From contig NC_089177.1 in NCBI RefSeq assembly GCF_947507565.1, forward strand, positions 426,648-490,647: a DNA stretch of 64,000 bases, in the 5' to 3' direction. This document shows, in pieces, positions 17,763-41,200 of this stretch. Source of the DNA: Oscarella lobularis (taxonomy: Eukaryota). The notes beneath the pieces were generated by a model. It saw only the letters and a program-made list of their open reading frames with translations. It was not told the origin of the DNA and did not search any database. Made by a program: the position numbers and the translations under genes. Within the stretch, counting starts at the first letter, position 1. Each line of letters starts with the position of its first letter.

Positions 17763-20700
17763 TCAAATGAGACCTGAGCCCTTTTGTCTGATAGGAATAC
17801 TTCCACGTATTTTTTGGAAGTCGAGGTTCTTGAGAAAGCGCCAGCACTCTTGTCGCCATTGAATGCTGTGCTGAATCATCTTCGCTAGCATTAGCCGATT
17901 TCCATTTGTCAGCATGACTTCGTGAGAACCTCCTTCTGTCTTTCCCATCATTTTTTTCAGAATTTCCGGAAAACGAGTAGGAGTCGTTGTAGAGAGTCGA
18001 CGAAATTTGCTTTGATTCGTCTCGTTCAACGATGTCCTTACCCAGATGCTGATTGGCAGCAGACTCAAATTTTCGTTTACCTAGAGGCTAAGTGCACGCC
18101 ACAATCAGCCAAATTTTAACTAATTAAATCAAAACCAACCCACTTCGTCAAGATATTCCCCGCAATCTTGAATCGAATGTTTGTTATTGTGATTAGAAAA
18201 AACGTGATTCGATTTTGGCTCCTGGAGACGAGATACAAGGTCAAGGTCAAATTAGCTCTCCGCTATTTTACAGAATGTACTGTCTTACGCCTGATTTTGC
18301 ATCAAATTCTTTCGTCGCCGACATTGTGGGCGAGGCAATGCATTGGGGATCGACTGGGTGTCGAAACTGCGGTAGAAAAGGTCACGAGGCTCCTCTAAGA
18401 ACGTACGTATAAAATTCGCACCCACAAGCCGTCGTTCGTAGTAGAAGGGTGGAAATTCCGACCTTTCGGCATGATAGGGAACACAGAAAGCAGAACGCAG
18501 AACTGGTTGCTAAGAACGCGCACGCGCGCGAGCTCCTAAACCAACACCTTTGCCACACCCACTTCACATCAGTTCTCATAGGAGGTCCATGCAAAGTAGC
18601 CTGTCCAGCTGTCGCCTCTGTGGCTGTACTTTTCCTGTAGTTTGCTAATCTCTTTTAAAGATGCTGATCTTTCCATATTCAAAACAATTTGAGCCCACTG
18701 AAAAAAATACATTTGAATCACCAAATATTAATAATTTTGCGCTGCTTTGCCTGTCGATGCCATTCTCGTCTTGTTTCTGCCACGGCTTCATATGTGTTAC
18801 CCATCATGGCAATGAGCATGTTGACAAGAACGACGAACATAAAAATCATCATCAAGACAAAGAAGAACTAAGAAGAACCCATTTACTATGTTCAACTGCA
18901 GATCATTAAGATATACCTTTGCCAATGCTGGATACTTGGAATGTTTATCCAAATCAACATAGTGACTCTAAAGAAATTCTATTGCATAGTTCTACTTGTA
19001 GAAACGGTACTCACTCCAAACTCCCCCAGAGTCATGTGAAATAGGCCAAGCATAGAGCCTACAGGATGATCGAAAATTTCGTGATTCGTGCCAATAAACG
19101 TGACGTAGAGACCTATATTTGTCTGCAAGTTAGGACAACGCATCCTTCTCTACTAAAGCCCTACCTTGTGAAAAGCCCATAAGAAAGATGGCATAGATAA
19201 CGATGAATCGAACAAGATCACTCTTACACATCTTTGATATCATTACAACAAACGACCCGACGAGCTTGAAACCCCTATACGTAGCACAGAAAGACGTCGT
19301 TGGGAGCAACTAAAATATTTAATCACCTGTAGAAGAACAAGAAGCGAGGCCATGCCAGCACGACCGCTAAAACAATAAAGACGTCTTCGTATGCAGCAAC
19401 GCAAGCTATTCGACCAGGCACGGCGGCTACGAGGCAAAAACACGAGAGGAGAAACATGATAGTAGCTGGAGACTGCATCTGGAAAAAAATAACGTGTCGT
19501 TGGATATATAAAAAGTTGAAGAATTTTTTACGAGAATAACTCCGTTTTTCTTCCAGCCCAGCGAATAACCGGACAAAATCCGCGACATCAAAAATGCAAT
19601 AGCAAAAAGGAGTGCAAATGCTTCGCAAACACAGCGAGCCTGATTGAAAACAGGAATTGGTTAGACTAAGATCTGTGTGTCTTTCCTTGGCTTACTATTC
19701 CACTTGAGCCTTTGCTGCAGTCTCTCAGATAGCAGCCGTTTTCAACATTAACATTACTTTTATTGGTTGAGTTGCAGTCAATGAATGTTTCATTAGCTAA
19801 GACGCGCGTCTGGTTGCAGACAAAGGAGCCATTGACATTACTACGATTCGGATCCTACGAGCAAAATATCCAACACCACAGTCAGCCCAATGCATGATAT
19901 CCTTACGTGAGCAGGACGTAGAATGAGAGCTGTAGTCAGTATAAGAACGTAGAAGCCAAAGGCTAATAGATGCTGAAAGAATCTAAGAAACAGTCTTTCT
20001 CTTAGGCCAATACAAAAAGGGGGAAAGTACCGTACATTCGTCGCGCATAGTGCTTCCATTTGGCTGAGAGTATTTCATAGACAAGTCCCTCTGTCATTTC
20101 TGCATGAACCAATGTATGCTAGGAAAGACAGAGCTAAGGTAACATATGTAGCTACTAGAGAATTTACCTTGTTCACCATCAAATTGATAGCTGACAATTC
20201 ATTTATCTCATTTCTACCGGGAACAATCTAGAATGAGACAAAGTTGCACACATACAGGTAGATGCAGAGGAAAGGTTTTTCTACAGTGTCAATTTCTTTG
20301 AGTGGATAGAGAGCACTTGATGCACGTCCATACGTCCACTGTGGAACTTTCTTAAGGCTCAGGATGAAATTAAACATTTCTTTTTTTCCCAAATACACGG
20401 CAAGAGTAAGAGGAGTGAAGCCATTCTTATTTTTGCATTGGTCACTGCACCCAAACTCGGTAAACAAAAACCGATACATATCCTAGATGCAGATTTGAGA
20501 TAACGAAGAAGGAATTTCTTTTATCGTACCTTGAGTCCGTAGATGACCATCATATGCAAGACGTTGTTCCCATTCGAGTCGGTCCAATCTTTCATGTGAG
20601 TATCGTGATGAAGACGAGTTTGATCAGAAAACTCCATGAGAAGACGAACAATTTGGAAGTGATTGTGACAGGCAGCGAACGAAAGGGGATACTCACCAAA

Positions 20701-21543
20701 ATAGCATGGCCTAAAAAACCACTAACGTCAGACTAATTCAAATCTTGGTGAGTTTCTACCCTTCGTAGTTCGTCTCTTTAGGAAGCACGACTCCCTCTCC
20801 GTCACTATCGTCAGTCCTGTCCTTTTCCTGATCAGTCGGATAAAAGAAACTTCCGACGGCAGCCGCGTCAACCCAAGCGCCCTTCGCCAATAGCAACTTG
20901 ACCATCTCCAAGTCACCATTAACAATAGCAATGTGAAGAGGCGCTTCACCTTTGGAAGACGATTAAAAATCTAAAGAAATAACACTGCCTATACACAGAT
21001 ACCATAGTATAAATCGCCAGCGTAGATATCGTTGACGAGACATGGAAACACGTTGACGATTTCCACCGCCAGTTCGCGATAAAGCGAACCGTTATTCAAC
21101 AAGCACAGATGAAGCGCCGTCTCGCCGACGGCACCGCGTCGATCGACGCTCCACCAAACGCGACGTCGACGATCTTGTCTCGTTGCTAGGCAACGACGAG
21201 ACGCGTTGACCGATTCGCGTTCGTTCGCGCTTAGGCGGCTGAGACGTTGTTTTCGGCGTCGTCGCACCATGTCGTCGACGTCGACCTCGTAGCCGTCGAT
21301 GCCGTTCGTGAGAAAGGCGGAGAGTTCGTTGCGAACGAGTCGACGCGTGTCGGCGACGAGATCCGCGCCGTTTCCGTGTTCGTGAGCGCGTCGGAGTGCG
21401 TCGACGAGTAGGCCGCCGCCTTTGAGCTTGACTAGGCGGTAGATGCTGTTGGGATCTTCGTCGTTTGCCGCTTGCTCGACGTTCGATCGATCGGCGACTT
21501 TTGACGGACCTGTCGATCTGTGATGCGAGAATACATCGCCCAT
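17763..21543 (-). CDS. TRPV-like cation channel with N-terminal ankyrin repeats, six TM segments and a pore loop, multi-exon
   Basis: The N-terminal exon 20989..21543 ([24 protein letters not shown]) is ankyrin-like. A second ankyrin exon reads [24 protein letters not shown] at about 20880-20950. [22 protein letters not shown]...[11 protein letters not shown] in 20228..20479 matches the TRPV pre-S1 region. TM exons lie in 19323..20059. The pore helix [10 protein letters not shown] is followed by TM6 [25 protein letters not shown] at about 18820-19030, which matches TRPV1 LLNMLIALMGE. Confidence 0.65.
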
Positions 21544-21884
21544 TGTTATGGAAGCACGCTAAGCAGGAAGTTACAGCTGCTTCCTATTCAAGTTGCAATC
21601 AACAACGTTTCACTTGGTGGTCAGATGGCGCTGCGATTTTTTGTCATTTCAGCTTTGCTCCTTTGGTTGGCCTTGACTAGATCTTTCGCCGACTGGAAGC
21701 TAGAAGAAATGGACGAAGTAGCAGGTAGTAGCTCCAGTGCACCGCGTCGCGGCTTACTATAAGTGACTAGATACGGCAGTGCAATCAATTTCCTGACGTT
21801 GGAGCTCCCTTAGTCGCACTGCCAACCACCTGCTAAGCTCTTTTAGAAGTAGTTTCGATTTCCGAATTTGGCTGCGGATCTGTT

Positions 21885-21912
21885 ACAGTTTTACAGTTTT
21901 ACAGTTTTACTT
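21885..21912. repeat. Microsatellite (cagtttta)n, about 3.5 units
   Basis: The run cagttttacagttttacagttttac can be read directly. Confidence 0.9.
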
Positions 21913-22039
21913 TCGATTTCCTGTAGACTATCCTAATCTAAAAGTCCTCTCATCTCGCGACAATTCGTGAACTTTGCTAGCTTCGCGCAGCCGTCCCAGC
22001 GGTTATTTTTGCCGCGACGGTGCATGACATAACATTTAG

Positions 22040-25000
22040 TTGCGAAGTAATTCAATTTTGGTTTTAGACTACACTCTCTCAGAAACGCTGTCAGGGAAAG
22101 CAAGGGAATCGTTTTTGCTGCAATCAGGTGCAACGCCTATAGAACAACTTGAAAGAAACGAACTGCCGCGCAACCTTGAATCTGGCGATTCCTGCTACAA
22201 AAGCGTTTCTTACCTTACCAGCGAGCAGATCAGAGAAAGAAAAATTCTGTTGGAGTTTTTTCAAGCGTTGAATGGTACTAAGTGGTTGGCCAACAAACAC
22301 TGGGACGAAGATGATAAGCCCCATTGTGACTGCTGGACCGGAATTTCTTGCTACAAAGCAGGAAACTATACTGGACTCGTACAAACGATTGATCTCAAAG
22401 AAAACAATCTTACTGGTCAATGTCCGAAATCGCTTTTGGATCTCACTGTTCTGGAGGAACTTCGTTTATCAAAAAACAGTATACGTATGAATCTTTCTAA
22501 ATTTCTTGGAGACAGTACAACTAAATGGTCACTTCTGCAAAGGTTTGATATGGCAACTTGTGAACTCTTTGGTCATATACCTTGGCACATTTTTGCAAGC
22601 TGGCCTTCTCTTCGCAAAATACAGCTAGGCGACAATACGAATCTAACAGGCAGCATCGGTGAAAACATCGGGGAAATAACGAACCTGGGAGTATTGAGTT
22701 TAGGTCATTCTGGAATTCGCGGCAGCCTTCCGCAGAGTTTTGAAAAACTCGTCAACCTTTGGTTTTTGGACTTGCAGTTTCTACAGTTGGTCGGAGACTT
22801 TTCCCAACTCCTACATTTTACTAAACTTCAATATTTTCACGCAGTTCAAAATAACTTAACGGGAAACATACCGACAGACTTTAGTAGCAGATATCGTTCT
22901 TTGGTGGAGTTTTCAATTCCGGAAAACAGTCTGAGTGGGACTCTTCCAAATTTTGATCAGCCTCTTGTAAACCTGACTGTTTTGAATTTGAGACACAATC
23001 ATTTTTCAGGACCCGTTCTTCCTCTGGTACTAAATTCAAGTACGCTTCGATACGTGGACTTGTCACATAATCAATTTACGTCAATTTTGCCCGGCTTTAA
23101 TATGAGTTCAATAGGCCTTTTTATTGCTGAAAACAATCTCCTGAATTTAACTGTCAATGACCTAGATGAACTGTTCGTATGCTTTGTGCGAAAGTGCCCT
23201 CAAAGATTGTCAATTAAGGTTTTAGATTTTAGCTCAACTGGCCTTCGTGGAGACTTTTTGCCTACACTTTGGATGATGACAAATATTTTTTCGATTGATC
23301 TGTCTAACAACAGCATAAGTGGAGTATGCAAAAGCCCTTACCTTATGATGCTGTACTTGCAAGTATTAGACCTGTCTGACAATGATCTAGAAGGTGAAAT
23401 ACCTTCTAGAATGAGTATGTTTCAGTCCGTCTTAATAATGAACTTTACTGGAAACGAAAATATGCGATCCTCTGCGTCTTCAACGCCCTGGTTTGTTAAG
23501 CCTGATTATCAACACATGAGTAAGGAAAGCGAAACAGACAATTTTACGTGTCCTGCACTTGTAATGAAACACACTAAAGGATGGCTAAAAGTTGACAGCA
23601 AGTACTACAACCGAAGCGTTTGCCATTGTCTTCCGGGATTTTATGGGTTTAATGGTTTCTGCAAACGTTGTCCGGCAAACGGTTCGCATTGCCCAGGAAA
23701 ACAAATTAACAGTAAACTACAAATGTTTTCTAACTATTATCCTTCTCCTAGTCCTGACGACTTTTCCAATCTCATCTTATGCAGTTCTATTTATCAAGAC
23801 ACCTTTCGTTGCAACCCGTCTAACAACTGTACTTGCTGGCTATCTGGCGATGGCGTATCTAGGTGTGATAAGTCTTGCATTTGTCAAAATAATGCAACGG
23901 GACGAGTGTGCTCTCTGTGCAACGATGGCTGCTACGATGACGGAAACAAATGTAGGCAGTGCTCCTCTGAGCCTACCTGGTCAAAAGTTGTCTACGTGGT
24001 TGTTGGACTACTTGTTGCTTTGGCTCCACTACTGTGGATAATAAACATGATCATTAAATACAAATATCCCCAATGGAAGCATCAGAAGCTCGCTTCCTGG
24101 ATAATAGTGTTTGCTACTGTTGGAGGTCTTAGCGTTTTTGTCTTTGCTTTACTCTTTGTTCGCGTCATTCCAACTTACGTGGCAGAAATTTATTTCCTCT
24201 TTATTCTTATTGCGACAATTGATTTCGCCAGAGATGTCAAAGTACTAGTCGTCATTTTCGTGTTCTATCTTCAAGTTTTGGATGCCATGCACGTTACACT
24301 TGTGGAAGTGCAATGTCCTGATTGCTCTTTCGTGAACTCTTTCAAGGATCTCCATTTCTATCAGTTTTACACAAAGCTGGGCAGCATTTTCAATTTTCGA
24401 TTTAGTGGGCTAGCTTGTTTAGTCCCAATAATGTTTGAGCCAATACCCCATCTCCTCTTATTAGCCGCTCTTCCTTTGGTGTTTGGATTGTTCTTGCTGA
24501 TTGTTCACCTAATAGACTACGGGTTCTTTCTATGTCTGAGAAAACCAACGGAAGACTCTGCGGACAGTGAGCGTACCAACAAAAAGCTAAGAGCGATAAA
24601 CAGTGTAAAAAGACATTTTGTGTCTGTTCTGAACTTGTTCTTTTTTCCGACCAGCAAAAGTACCCTCAAAGTATTTGCCGGCTGTTATACCAGCGAGGAT
24701 AATTCGTATATGAAGGCCTTTCCTTGGATTCCTTGTTCTTCGTCTCAGTATCATTGGCTCGAAATGCAAGCCTCTATAACATTTGTGTTCTATGGAATTA
24801 TTACGTTAATCGTGTTTCTCGTTTCTTTACGTCTCCACGCCAACAAATGCAATTGTCAAAAGAAGGACTTTTCGTGGCGTCATACCGCTCGTATCGTTTG
24901 TGGTCAAAATGCCACAGATAACGGAGACGAAGAGAAGGAAAACGATAATAACGATTCAGTTATGTGCCACTACTGCATTCCTTATAAGTCTCCATACAAC

Positions 25001-25447
25001 CGTTTTATGGCCTTGCTGGTGATGCTTCGACGACTTTTAACTGCTGCCATACTAGCACTGTTTACTTGGGACAACCGCGACCTTCAGTCCCTTGCATTCA
25101 ATGGACTATTGCTGTTGTATCTTACTATCGTATGTTCAACGAGGCCATACAATGATGTGTGGGAAAACGTAATGGAAATAACGGCCAACACCATGGTTCT
25201 CGTGACTTTCAACTGCATGACTAATCGAGACTACGAAAACAAAGTTGCTTCGGATATCGTCACGATTACAAATTTTGTTTTTGGTATCATTCTAGTACTC
25301 TCTGCACTAACGAAAGCATTTCTTCTTTGGAAATACTACCGCGCTAAAACAGCTGCCAGACAAGGTCAAGGTCAAGGTCAAGGTCAACGTCGAGGCAGCA
25401 ATGAACCGTTACTCGGAGATCAGTCAGCAAAAAAGAAAGAAACGTAG
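22040..25447 (+). CDS. Intronless gene of 1135 aa: plant-type LRR ectodomain, then a Cys-rich EGF/TNFR-like module, then a polytopic membrane domain of 9 or more predicted TM segments, then a GQGQGQGQ tail
   Basis: A single uninterrupted ORF spans the gene. The LRRNT_2-like cap LLEFFQALNGTKW...CDCWTGISC is followed by about 12 LRRs of the plant-specific LxxLxLxxNxLxGxIP type (NNLTGNIPTDF, NSLSGTLPNF, NHFSGPVLP). A Cys-rich block CHCLPGFYGFNGFCKRCPANGSHCPG...CICQNNATGRVCSLCNDGCYDDGNKCRQC follows. Multiple hydrophobic helices run from VVYVVVGLLVALAPLLWIINMII to IVTITNFVFGIILVLSALT. A (ggtcaa)4 repeat sits at 25367-25390. The gene is about 42% GC against about 55-58% in flanking genes. No N-terminal signal peptide was found in the ORF, so an upstream exon is possible. 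Confidence 0.75.
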   Translation: MRSNSILVLDYTLSETLSGKARESFLLQSGATPIEQLERNELPRNLESGDSCYKSVSYLTSEQIRERKILLEFFQALNGTKWLANKHWDEDDKPHCDCWTGISCYKAGNYTGLVQTIDLKENNLTGQCPKSLLDLTVLEELRLSKNSIRMNLSKFLGDSTTKWSLLQRFDMATCELFGHIPWHIFASWPSLRKIQLGDNTNLTGSIGENIGEITNLGVLSLGHSGIRGSLPQSFEKLVNLWFLDLQFLQLVGDFSQLLHFTKLQYFHAVQNNLTGNIPTDFSSRYRSLVEFSIPENSLSGTLPNFDQPLVNLTVLNLRHNHFSGPVLPLVLNSSTLRYVDLSHNQFTSILPGFNMSSIGLFIAENNLLNLTVNDLDELFVCFVRKCPQRLSIKVLDFSSTGLRGDFLPTLWMMTNIFSIDLSNNSISGVCKSPYLMMLYLQVLDLSDNDLEGEIPSRMSMFQSVLIMNFTGNENMRSSASSTPWFVKPDYQHMSKESETDNFTCPALVMKHTKGWLKVDSKYYNRSVCHCLPGFYGFNGFCKRCPANGSHCPGKQINSKLQMFSNYYPSPSPDDFSNLILCSSIYQDTFRCNPSNNCTCWLSGDGVSRCDKSCICQNNATGRVCSLCNDGCYDDGNKCRQCSSEPTWSKVVYVVVGLLVALAPLLWIINMIIKYKYPQWKHQKLASWIIVFATVGGLSVFVFALLFVRVIPTYVAEIYFLFILIATIDFARDVKVLVVIFVFYLQVLDAMHVTLVEVQCPDCSFVNSFKDLHFYQFYTKLGSIFNFRFSGLACLVPIMFEPIPHLLLLAALPLVFGLFLLIVHLIDYGFFLCLRKPTEDSADSERTNKKLRAINSVKRHFVSVLNLFFFPTSKSTLKVFAGCYTSEDNSYMKAFPWIPCSSSQYHWLEMQASITFVFYGIITLIVFLVSLRLHANKCNCQKKDFSWRHTARIVCGQNATDNGDEEKENDNNDSVMCHYCIPYKSPYNRFMALLVMLRRLLTAAILALFTWDNRDLQSLAFNGLLLLYLTIVCSTRPYNDVWENVMEITANTMVLVTFNCMTNRDYENKVASDIVTITNFVFGIILVLSALTKAFLLWKYYRAKTAARQGQGQGQGQRRGSNEPLLGDQSAKKKET

Positions 25448-38261: not shown

Positions 38262-41200
38262 ATGTCGACAGAGTGGAGCGTACGCGAACGGCTTATTCTC
38301 GCCTCGTCCGTTCTCAATAGCGGCGATCAGAACTGGTAGGAGTCGACCTCAGTACATTCTGCCAAGTCTTCTCACTCTGCGCGCTCTCAACAGGGTCTCA
38401 GTCAGCAGAGCCGTAAAACCTTTGCTGGAACAGACGCGTCCATCTGAAGACTTTTCGCAGAAGGTGCAGGAATTTCGTGCCTGCAGAATTAATACAGTAC
38501 TCGCTTAATTCTAGAATTGCGCGATACAGTACTCGGAGATGCTAGAAAAAGTGGGCACATCGAAGTAGGATTTAAACTCGTAAACCGCGCACCATTTTTA
38601 TTCGAATCCTCGCTGTAGGAGAAAGAGAAGCACTGATATGGGAATGGGAGGTTAGTTGATTGCTACATAATGTAGTGGTGATCAGAGTTTGATTTTCTTG
38701 GCAGGGGAGACTCCTGGAGAGCAGATAGTACGCAAATTGACGTATGAGCGCATAGACGAGCTAAAGAAGTCAATCAAAGCTCAACACGCATTATACAAGT
38801 GAGTTGACGACTTCTACGTATTGCCACTGGTAGCACGTCTTTGTTTATAGGAAACTCAAGCAGGAAGTCAAATTGATTGCAGAAGGTAAGATGGATGACT
38901 CATTGGAGCAGATGTGGCAAGAAATTCAGGCGTGAGTCGTTGAAACGTTGGACCCCTTCTAAAAAATAAATTACTTTTTGTGGACGAAAAGGGAGAAAGC
39001 TGCCGCTGCAGAAAAGGACGGTGAAACACAGCGGATCGAAACTGAGCCAACGGCGACAGAAAAGATTGTAGTAGGTGAAACGACGACATCAGATTCGAGT
39101 TCTAGTGAAAAGAAAAATGACGAAAGCGGTTCCGTGTTGACTGCCGAGAAAGAGTCGGGTGTGATTGAGAAAGATGCTCAGGAGAAAGTTGTGGTTATGG
39201 AAGTGGAAAGAAATGAAGATCCAAAGAAGGGTACTAGCGATGAAGAGACGGAAATGGTTGAAGTGGAGACGGTTGAGGAAGAGAAAAAAACTGAAGTCGA
39301 AGAGACTGGTGCAAGAGAGGAGAAACAAGATGACGAGACCCCAATGGAGGTCGATGAGAAAGTAGACGTTGAAAGCGTTAAAACTAAAGAGGATCTCGAT
39401 GAAAAGAGCGCACCTGGTATTGATGATGTGGAAATGGGAGAGAAAGAGAAGGAGGAGGAACGTGAGGAGAAAAACGAGGCAGGCGTGGAAAGAGCAGAAG
39501 CGATTAATAAGGAAGACGAAGAACAAGAGACAGACAAAGATAATAAGCATGAACCGCAGCCACAATCAGAAGAAAAGGAAGAAGAAAAAGATGAGAAAGA
39601 AGACGTTGAGGTCAAAGACGTTGACATTGAGGCGAAGGCAACGACTGACAAAAGCGAGGACGAGCTAAAAAGCGAGAATGGTGACGACAACGAGACAAAA
39701 TGCAATAAAGTAGACGACGAAGGCGATAACAATGACGATGATCGCCAAAAGGATGATATCGAGCCGGACGATGCGAGCAAAGCGGAAATAACGGAGTCCA
39801 AAGTCAAAGAGGCTGCACCAGCGGAAAGCGAAGAAAAACAGGAGGAAGAAAAAGTAGAAATGGACGAAGAAGATGGCAAAGAAGACAAAATTTCGAGTGT
39901 TGAGGACCAACGCAAATCTGAGGAACCAACGGTGTCTCCGCCAGCTCAAGAGAAGGAAGAGCCGCTCAAAGAAGAAAAGACGACAGAAAAAGATGACGAA
40001 GAGGAAGAGAAAAAAGAAGAGATGGAAGAGGAGGAGGACGAGAAGAAGGGTGCTAACGATGATAATAATATGGCAGACGAGAGTAGCGACATTCCGGCTG
40101 AGCCATCCTCGCCTGTCAAATCTGTTTCACCGACTTCCCATCGATCCTCCAAGGTGCGCTACCTTGTTCCCGTGATATCCCCAATAAAGAGCCCCGAAGC
40201 GACTAAAGCTGATGTCACCAAAACGACTTCAGAAGCGGTGCCGGTTAAAGAAGAGAAACGGGAGGAGGACAGCGCTGCGGCTGGAACCAAAGAGATCAAA
40301 TCTTCCGGGGACGAAATCGTCTCTCCGGCGGCGCCACCGCCGACGGTCACTCCAGCTCGAGGAGGACGAGGAAAGGCGAGCAGGAGACGATCGTCTGAAA
40401 GAGAAGTCGGGTACGGAAGCGTTGAAAGAAAGGCGGTAGTAACTCGATCTGGAAGAAAAATCAAAGGCAGGGGGGAAGATGCTTAGTTTTGAAATATAGA
40501 GTTTAGTGTCTGTATTAGCGTCGGCAAAGGCTTCTGGTATGTATGGAACGACAGTGAGGTCTTATCGAAGTCGACGACGAAGTCAGCGGGAGTCAGAAGA
40601 GAAAGCCGAGGAGGTGCGTGAGGCGGTGGATGTGTTGGGCGCTAAAATTGTCCCTTTGAGTGCAGGTGGAAACCGCTACGACGTCGAAACGAGAAGATCC
40701 GGACGAGGAGGAGGACGAAGAGGACGAAGAGGAGGGCGATGACGAGCAAGGGAAAGACGGGGGCGAGGGCGAAGGAAACGCGGAGGACGAGGAAGTAGAC
40801 GTCAAGGATTCTGACGTTGAAAGTCCTCTCGTCGAAGTGGAGAAGAGGGACGTTGCCGATGAGGCGTCGCCGCGGGTGACGTCGGCCGGCTCTAGCACCC
40901 CGTCGTCTCCTCCAATCGGGTAAAACGAAGGGTTGTGAGATTGATGTGTTTGTTTGTTTGTTACGATATCGATGTAGAGATTTTGATCAGAAAGCTTGGC
41001 GAAAGACGATTATGGTCGTTTGGAAGAAAATAGCTGAGCATCGGTAAATTTAAGATTTAATAGTTAAATAATTAAATGTGGCGAATTTAGGAACGCTAAC
41101 CTATTTCTTCGTTCCGTGTCCGAAAAGGAAGCACCGGGCTATTATGACGTCGTTTGCCGGCCGATGGATTTAGCGACAATTAAGAATCGGGTGGATAAAG

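Follow-up and report, generated by a model that had tools for sequence, protein, structure and literature searches.

How does a sponge come to carry, within one very long exon of low G+C content (GC), a receptor-like protein with a plant-type ectodomain, and what kind of membrane protein is it? The question is raised by a 64,000-nucleotide stretch of the Oscarella lobularis genome (contig NC_089177.1, positions 426,648 to 490,647; hereafter the window, to whose numbering all positions refer unless a separate locus is named), in which an uninterrupted plus-strand open reading frame (ORF) at 22040..25447, 1135 codons long when counted from an in-frame TTG, encodes leucine-rich repeats (LRRs), a Cys-rich segment and a polytopic membrane domain. 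A preliminary description of these letters had correctly delimited the ORF, read it as an intronless gene, and offered horizontal acquisition, a retrogene or a lineage-specific sensor as candidate explanations. The explanation that we favour as a whole, by a modest degree of confidence, is a native gene of an ancient family in which an LRR ectodomain is coupled to a membrane module of the Flc/Pkd2 type; the statements about identity and origin, taken by themselves, we hold with considerable confidence.

The ORF turned out to be the larger part of a two-exon gene. The window protein clusters at >90% identity with RefSeq XP_065828195.1 (1159 aa) of Oscarella lobularis, a homoscleromorph sponge, and mapping of that protein (P0121) onto the window by tblastn, with the boundaries then read directly from the letters, placed a 100-nt first coding exon at 21625..21724 on the plus strand. 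This exon ends after the first base of codon 34 and encodes a signal peptide (MALRFFVISALLLWLALTRSFA, the hydrophobic segment comprising residues 1-23) plus 11 residues. It is followed by a 343-nt phase 1 GT..AG intron (21725..22067, plus strand, with boundaries gtagta...ttttag) and by a second coding exon of 3380 nt including the TAG stop (22068..25447, plus strand), which carries residues 34-1159 and with them the whole mature protein. Joining g to ac across the splice yields Asp34, in agreement with the RefSeq protein, and the translation of exon 2 shows 0 mismatches to XP_065828195.1. The gene is therefore not intronless, whereas the upstream signal-peptide exon that the preliminary description had foreseen does exist. 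The sequence itself is already in RefSeq under an uninformative name, 'putative leucine-rich repeat-containing protein DDB_G0281931', transferred from the SwissProt entry DDB_G0281931. An overlapping +1-frame ORF at 23592-24041 was set aside as a chance ORF within the coding exon, and we note a perfect (TTACAGTT)3.5 tandem repeat at 21883-21910, within the 343-nt intron.

The ectodomain begins with a plant-type cap. Residues 88-129 (22229..22354, plus strand) carry an HCxCWxGIxC motif and, when this segment (ERKILLEFFQALNGTKW...HCDCWTGISC) was tested alone, it matched Pfam LRRNT_2 over positions 4-40 of 41 and just cleared the cutoff of 20.7 bits, scoring 20.9 (E=4e-4). In the family alignment, cap residues W106, W112, H119, C120, W123, G125 and C128 are invariant. 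The cap is followed by an LRR solenoid (22355..23482, plus strand) for which Pfam, motif spacing and an AlphaFold2 (AF2) model together indicate about 15 repeats, mostly with a 24-residue period and LxGxIP/LP motifs; the Pfam matches in the protein are to LRR_8 (3.5e-16), LRR_1 and LRR_4. The AF2 model of the ectodomain has a predicted local distance difference test (pLDDT) value of 90.3, and all 50 of its 50 best Protein Data Bank (PDB) matches in Foldseek are ectodomains of plant LRR receptor kinases, among them MIK2, FLS2, PSKR, ERL1, RGFR1 and HAESA, while an animal TLR, LGR or Slit fold occurs in none of these 50. These results bear out the earlier reading of both the cap and the repeats as following the plant pattern, and of the cap as something other than the animal Cys-knot LRRNT. 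The likeness to plant LRR receptor kinases and receptor-like proteins (FLS2, MIK2, PSKR, ERL1, HAESA) thus extends to the LRRNT_2 cap, the 24-residue LRRs and the fold of the ectodomain, with Foldseek E-values down to 8e-19, but it is limited to the LRR region, at 19-25% identity in structural alignments, and the single-pass transmembrane (TM) segment with a kinase or short tail that is typical of the plant proteins is not present in the window protein, which gives no Pkinase match and has 11 predicted TM helices.

Between the solenoid and the membrane lies a Cys-rich juxtamembrane module of 144 residues (525-668; 23540..23971, plus strand), delimited by its Cys positions and the AF2 model, in which it is all-beta. 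It contains 18 Cys, of which 11 are invariant across 50 family members, including those from amoebozoans and the malawimonad. The module had been described as an EGF/TNFR-like spacer, and its Cys-rich character stands; the only Pfam signal that it gives in the window protein, however, is a sub-threshold match to laminin-EGF (EGF_laminin, E=0.07). DUF7630 matches were found in 6 of 48 relatives. Across the whole ectodomain there are 17 N-glycosylation sequons. The gene product is a protein of the secretory pathway with type-I orientation, in which an LRR solenoid and a disulfide-rich stalk lead directly into a polytopic module.

This membrane module occupies residues 670-1138 (23975..25381, plus strand). 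The preliminary description had counted nine or more TM helices; hydropathy and the AF2 model (pLDDT 84.2, predicted template modelling score 0.86) place the number at 11. Cys-bearing loops precede TM5 and TM7, and a disordered, charged loop of 55 residues precedes TM8. Because a signal peptide, a glycosylated ectodomain and an odd number of helices occur together, we infer an N-terminus outside and a cytoplasmic C-terminus. The predicted loops fit this orientation, with those before TM5 and TM7 extracellular and that before TM8 cytoplasmic. The short tail that follows includes the GQ repeat noted earlier near the C-terminus, which is encoded by a (CAAGGT)n microsatellite reading QGQGQGQGQ (25361..25395, plus strand; period 6 and 5.8 copies in Tandem Repeats Finder) and is absent from the other aligned family members. 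Just beyond it, family alignment reveals a C-terminal EPLL motif (25403..25414, plus strand), of the form EP[LIM][LIF] (EPLL, EPIL or EPLI), which is conserved near the C-terminus of sponge and cnidarian members, with E1146 nearly invariant. It may be a sorting or adaptor-binding signal, although it does not fit the canonical [DE]xxxL[LI] spacing.

Is this architecture peculiar to Oscarella? Family alignments show conservation over the whole length of the protein, with full-length homologues covering 86-94% of the query. O. lobularis itself has at least four paralogues, and named relatives with the full architecture come from the homoscleromorph sponges O. pearsei and Corticium candelabrum, the octocorals Paramuricea clavata and Xenia sp., the jellyfish Sanderia malayensis, the nemertean Tubulanus polymorphus, the dictyostelid Heterostelium album and the malawimonad Gefionella okellyi. 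In the common plan, a signal peptide and an LRRNT_2 cap precede about 15 LRRs of the plant-specific type, after which come the conserved Cys-rich stalk, the module of 11 helices and a short tail in the cytoplasm. The membrane module was also placed in a neighbour-joining tree, made quickly from distances, lacking support values and mostly unlabelled at its leaves, which serves as corroboration and not as proof. There the window protein has a sequence of O. pearsei as its sister, within a clade of sponges that includes Corticium; the nemertean and cnidarian groups lie adjacent to this clade, and the amoebozoan sequences fall outside. The Heterostelium protein (EFA84670.1, P0260) has the same tripartite plan of LRRs, a Cys-rich module (here with a sub-threshold DUF7630 match) and a homologous TM module, but the identity is only about 20-27% and it lies outside the animal clade. 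In S. malayensis four family gene models are consecutively numbered, and Tubulanus has at least two copies.

The family consists of ancient, uncharacterised, type-I-oriented polytopic proteins, and the data fit a native, vertically inherited gene of an ancient eukaryotic family that has been retained patchily in animals. Of the suggestion of a lineage-specific sensor, the sensor role is plausible, but the family, which ranges from sponges to a malawimonad, is not lineage-specific. Literature searches on DDB_G0281931, on DUF7630, on LRR and TRP-like proteins of Dictyostelium and on Oscarella LRR receptors turned up no account of the family and no published function for either DDB_G0281931 or Heterostelium EFA84670.1. 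The LRR, Cys-rich and TRP-like architecture, conserved between amoebozoans and malawimonads on the one hand and sponges, cnidarians and a nemertean on the other, appears to be unannotated.

We then come to the identity of the membrane module itself, for which no known family had been recognised. In line with that statement, the window protein has no direct match to Pfam PF06011, the family named 'TRP' that comprises Flc/Pkd2-type proteins, either with the whole protein at E<=1 or with the TM module at E<=10. Yet the module is homologous to proteins that do pass this family. A TM-only profile built from 11 animal sequences was run with hmmsearch exhaustively against a library of 1.8 billion proteins, and recovered 6557 representative proteins at E<=1e-3 and 1242 at E<=1e-10, many of the 6557 carrying other ectodomains or none. 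Among 48 members scanned singly, 11 matched PF06011, the best with E=3.5e-11, and three exceeded the Pfam gathering threshold of 28.5 bits (P0253 with 43 bits, P0295 with 35.7 and P0256 with 33.9); the family profile finds the same three proteins in that library at E-values of about 1e-22 to 1e-26. The PF06011 match always falls on the region aligned with TM6-TM11 of the window protein. Furthermore, hhalign of the animal profile against the PF06011-positive proteins gave a probability of 99.9% and E=2e-34 over 315 columns, and the two sides have in common the motifs FYxQ, NFxFSGxxC, YFPI...C, YMxxxPWIxCS, RRxLLA and RPF...EN. In the window protein the part that aligns by hhalign and hmmsearch with proteins passing PF06011 (24101..25216, plus strand) contains FYxQ, NFxFSGxxC, FFP...C, YMKAFPWIPCSS, RRLL.A and RPY...EN. 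Judged from these profile comparisons, the membrane module is homologous to PF06011-member proteins and would be a divergent member of their superfamily. This link appears to be unannotated, as the precomputed Pfam lists of family members hold LRR families only.

Other routes to the module were less informative. A word-index homologue search proved unsuited to it, returning two matches for the Cys-rich and TM half and none for a 23-sequence TM alignment. Weak Pfam matches to CD20 and HbrB fall below threshold, on TM segments, and were dismissed as noise. The best Foldseek match of the membrane fold to a solved structure had an E-value of 0.22 and a TM-score of 0.16, and sequence searches of the PDB with both TM profiles gave nothing meaningful. 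Since no solved structure resembles the fold, the module is neither a seven-TM (7TM) G protein-coupled receptor (GPCR) nor a canonical six-TM (6TM) TRP/polycystin core, and there is now a confident AlphaFold model for a fold without a solved structure. Canonical TRP channels share the label 'TRP' with the window protein through the name of the Pfam family; the Ion_trans or PKD_channel Pfam match and the 6TM fold match of canonical TRP channels and polycystins are absent from it. In one of the 48 relatives scanned, the same TM module carries a cyclic nucleotide monophosphate-binding domain (E=1e-8), a channel-like accessory domain.

To PF06011 belong the fungal proteins Flc1-3, Pkd2/Trp1322/Trp663 and TrpR, which are implicated in Ca2+ homeostasis (PMC8618638, PMC9600462). 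Schizosaccharomyces pombe Pkd2, whose N-terminal domain is extracellular and whose tail is cytoplasmic, passes Ca2+ upon membrane stretch when reconstituted, and it is the only PF06011 protein for which stretch-activated Ca2+ permeability is known (PMC9727806). The window protein resembles the fungal members (S. pombe Pkd2/Trp1322/Trp663, Saccharomyces cerevisiae Flc1-3, Aspergillus nidulans TrpR and Cryptococcus neoformans Flc1) in its polytopic module, homologous by transitive hidden Markov model and profile-profile evidence, and in its general plan, which runs from a signal peptide and an N-terminal domain outside the cell through a module of several helices to a tail in the cytoplasm. It differs from them in lying below the Pfam threshold, in its 11 predicted helices, and in its ectodomain, which consists of LRRNT_2, LRRs and a Cys-rich stalk where the fungal proteins have an ML-like/TRP_N lipid-binding domain (PMC8618638). 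The LRR-TM family also differs from the fungal PF06011 proteins in distribution, being found in animals, amoebozoans and a malawimonad and not in fungi.

What might such a protein do? We infer localisation, ligand binding and ion permeation for the window protein, and propose the following mechanism tentatively, by analogy with Pkd2, as one that is possible but that we would not presume to be correct. The protein would be located in the plasma membrane, where its glycosylated LRR solenoid would bind an extracellular partner, which might be a peptide, a microbial ligand or some component of the matrix. This binding, or else a mechanical load borne by the ectodomain, would act by way of the rigid, disulfide-rich stalk and the Cys-bonded loops outside the membrane to modulate the cation (Ca2+) conductance of the membrane module, making the protein a receptor and a channel in one chain. 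More speculatively, and rather doubtfully at this stage, the family could represent an as yet unrecognised, pre-metazoan class of one-chain receptor-channels, in which a plant-style LRR ectodomain gates or loads a Flc/Pkd2-type Ca2+-permeable module, kept in sponges, cnidarians and a few bilaterians as a sensor of the environment, of microbes or of matrix tension. If the mechanism were true, plant-type LRR ectodomains would be an ancestral eukaryotic sensing module with outputs wired differently by lineage, to kinases in plants and to a polytopic TRP-like membrane module here, and early-branching animals would gain a candidate device for direct receptor-to-calcium signalling. The poorly understood Flc/Pkd2 superfamily, in turn, is now extended into animals.

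Several points weigh against the coupling of an LRR ectodomain to a Flc/Pkd2-type channel module, beginning with the lack of a PF06011 match for the window protein at the cutoffs given above. The matches in its relatives cover only the C-terminal half of the Pfam model (about 210-410 of 426), and the link is transitive, running through environmental and protist sequences and not through the characterised fungal Flc/Pkd2 proteins. The tree that accompanies the case for native origin is of the provisional kind already described. The case for channel activity in PF06011 proteins comes from few experiments, and for certain members (Flc) the role described is that of flavin carriers of the endoplasmic reticulum (ER). 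These last points lead to the main alternative, which accepts the same family but takes the module to be an intracellular transporter or carrier (ER, Golgi or endolysosomal), much as a flavin-carrier role has been proposed for the yeast Flc proteins, or a structural or trafficking module, with the LRRs facing the lumen or serving in adhesion or matrix binding. It would agree with reports that place PF06011 members variously in the ER, Golgi and plasma membrane and that describe them as flavin adenine dinucleotide (FAD) carriers (PMC8618638, PMC9600462, PMC11333956); the EPLL-type motif conserved near the C-terminus may serve in sorting, and no pore-like fold was recognised. On the other hand, a large, sequon-rich LRR ectodomain (17 sites) on a disulfide-rich stalk is typical of cell-surface receptors, and the best-tested PF06011 protein is a stretch-activated, Ca2+-permeable protein of the plasma membrane. 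Neither observation is decisive, and we regard this alternative as unlikely, while taking it seriously.

The remaining alternatives concern the origin of the gene, for which we prefer vertical inheritance within the ancient family. Might the 3.4-kb exon be a processed retrocopy of an intron-rich parent? The contrast between this very long uninterrupted exon and the many short exons of the TRPV-like gene beside it would suggest so. However, a phase 1 intron separates the signal-peptide exon from the body of the gene, and the paralogue P0123 is laid out in the same way, with a short intron between a small signal-peptide exon and a giant one. The two paralogues examined, of which P0123 is one, read from the single-ORF versions of the genes in ENA, are single uninterrupted ORFs at loci separate from that of the window gene, and octocoral-type genes are uninterrupted ORFs of about 3.1 kb. 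As paralogue and cnidarian-type genes are likewise single long ORFs, no intron-rich parent is evident; and because the layout recurs in P0123 and the cnidarian-type ORFs are uninterrupted too, the big exon is ancestral and not a recent retrocopy. In addition, neither a poly(A) tract nor an AATAAA/ATTAAA signal occurs in the 750 nt past the stop, and the genome contains other long single-exon genes (a NACHT gene of 970 aa and a giant ORF of at least 2,591 codons). A retrogene, as the preliminary description had considered, is thus very unlikely, although the family itself may have arisen long ago by retroposition.

The other proposal, that the gene or its LRR ectodomain was recently acquired from a plant, alga or oomycete, would explain together why the LRRs are of plant type, why GC is low and why introns are lacking. 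It draws on the match of the cap to LRRNT_2 and on the plant LRR receptor-kinase ectodomains that are the best structural matches; outside the family, moreover, most named sequence matches are plant LRR receptor-like kinases and receptor-like proteins. The composition of the gene also appears to point the same way. Exon 2 has a GC of 0.413 and a GC at third codon positions (GC3) of 0.41, whereas several coding ORFs nearby, namely those of an arrestin-domain gene, of exons of a Brr2-like helicase and an Hsp70-like one, have a GC3 of 0.60-0.70, so that the gene is indeed, as first described, distinct from GC-rich neighbours at about 42% GC. That description had further given the neighbours as 55-58% GC and broken into short exons. 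This holds for the short exons of the TRPV-like gene and for the GC-richness of the arrestin-domain gene, but the internal exons of the adjacent TRPV-like gene have a GC of 0.44 (GC3 0.475) and the arrestin-domain gene is a single ORF of 410 codons.

Comparison with other O. lobularis sequences alters this picture. The local non-coding background has a GC of 0.42-0.45, matching exon 2, and GC3 elsewhere in the genome is 0.43 in the paralogues, 0.40 in the 970-aa NACHT gene and 0.45 in the giant ORF. The relative synonymous codon usage (RSCU) of exon 2 correlates with that of the NACHT gene, the giant ORF and the paralogues at r = 0.71-0.75, and with that of GC3-rich genes at r = -0.07 to -0.23; in codon use it thus agrees with native GC3-poor genes and not with its GC3-rich neighbours. 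Given these values, together with the GC3 of the TRPV exons, the low GC3 of exon 2 is not a foreign signature. The O. lobularis genome has two native codon-usage classes, with the LRR-TM gene in the GC3-poor one (0.40-0.48), which in our small sample consists mostly of long-exon genes and also includes the short internal TRPV exons. The GC3-rich class, at 0.65-0.70, takes in the arrestin-domain gene, the Brr2-like helicase and the Hsp70-like ORF. RSCU is negatively correlated between the GC3-rich and GC3-poor classes, and GC peaks are located at 5' ends and promoters, as at 21200-21599.

Beyond composition, the full architecture is common to sponges, cnidarians, a nemertean, a dictyostelid and a malawimonad, with both the Cys-rich and the TM modules conserved, and the window protein nests among sponge sequences in the tree. 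There are four paralogues, of which the two examined lie at separate loci with the same composition; the gene contains a spliceosomal intron and stands head-to-head with a sponge TRPV gene. The plant matches, by contrast, span only the LRR part (25-39% of the query) at 25-31% identity, and there is no kinase domain. The widespread tripartite relatives, the nesting within sponges, the intron and the native-like RSCU together lead us to consider horizontal acquisition highly improbable. A tempting call of horizontal transfer is thereby removed, low GC3 and a giant exon marking instead a native Oscarella class that includes an NLR-like gene.

Finally, polycystin-1 also combines N-terminal LRRs with 11 TM helices, and an ordinary animal LRR GPCR (of the LGR/relaxin-receptor type) or a polycystin-1-like protein, in which an LRR ectodomain is likewise followed by several TM helices, would look superficially alike, but the probability of such an identity is negligible given that the TM module gives no 7tm, PKD_channel, REJ, GPS or PLAT match in Pfam at E<=10, that it has 11 helices and not the seven of an LGR, that the cap is LRRNT_2 in place of the animal Cys-knot LRRNT and the ectodomain fold is plant-like, and that there is no significant structural match to a GPCR, TRP channel or polycystin, the GPCR entries in Foldseek being noise (E>=0.3, TM-score <=0.16). 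The LGR identity that the preliminary description had named as a finding that would overturn its view accordingly received neither a 7tm Pfam match nor a Foldseek match above noise.

The gene on the other side of the probable promoter region is a multi-exon TRPV-family channel gene (~18700-21543, minus strand). Among solved structures its nearest relative is insect Nanchung (E=2.5e-58), with Inactive and then TRPV6/5/3 next; that a sponge has a Nanchung-like TRPV gene may deserve attention by itself. Its minus-strand ORF starts at 21543 and the ATG of the LRR gene lies at 21625 on the plus strand, leaving a gap of 81 nt (21544..21624) between the divergent start codons, with a local GC peak of 0.58 at 21200-21599. 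Since the head-to-head start codons are only 81 nt apart, this gap is a probable shared bidirectional promoter and 5' untranslated region, and the LRR-TM gene might be co-regulated with the Nanchung-like channel. Further along the window, a 502-codon ORF (38978-40486, plus strand) encodes an extremely acidic, Glu/Asp/Lys-rich low-complexity segment with no Pfam match, which explains the strong purine skew at 39-41 kb (AT skew 0.53, GC skew 0.36).

The paralogue loci have neighbours of their own. About 5 kb upstream of paralogue P0002, a single-exon NACHT ORF of 970 aa (L001:2148-5400, minus strand) is directly preceded by a CARD ORF; this NLR-like gene is equally low in GC3, and several fragments of mitochondrial-carrier ORFs flank it. 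At the P0003 locus, the region about 2 kb upstream holds the giant uninterrupted ORF (L003:1-7774, plus strand), with a called product of 5588 aa and a faint AAA_22 match. Each of the two paralogue loci is present on two ENA contigs of one assembly (L001/L002 and L003/L004), with identical upstream and slightly divergent downstream flanks, and the pairs are probably haplotigs.

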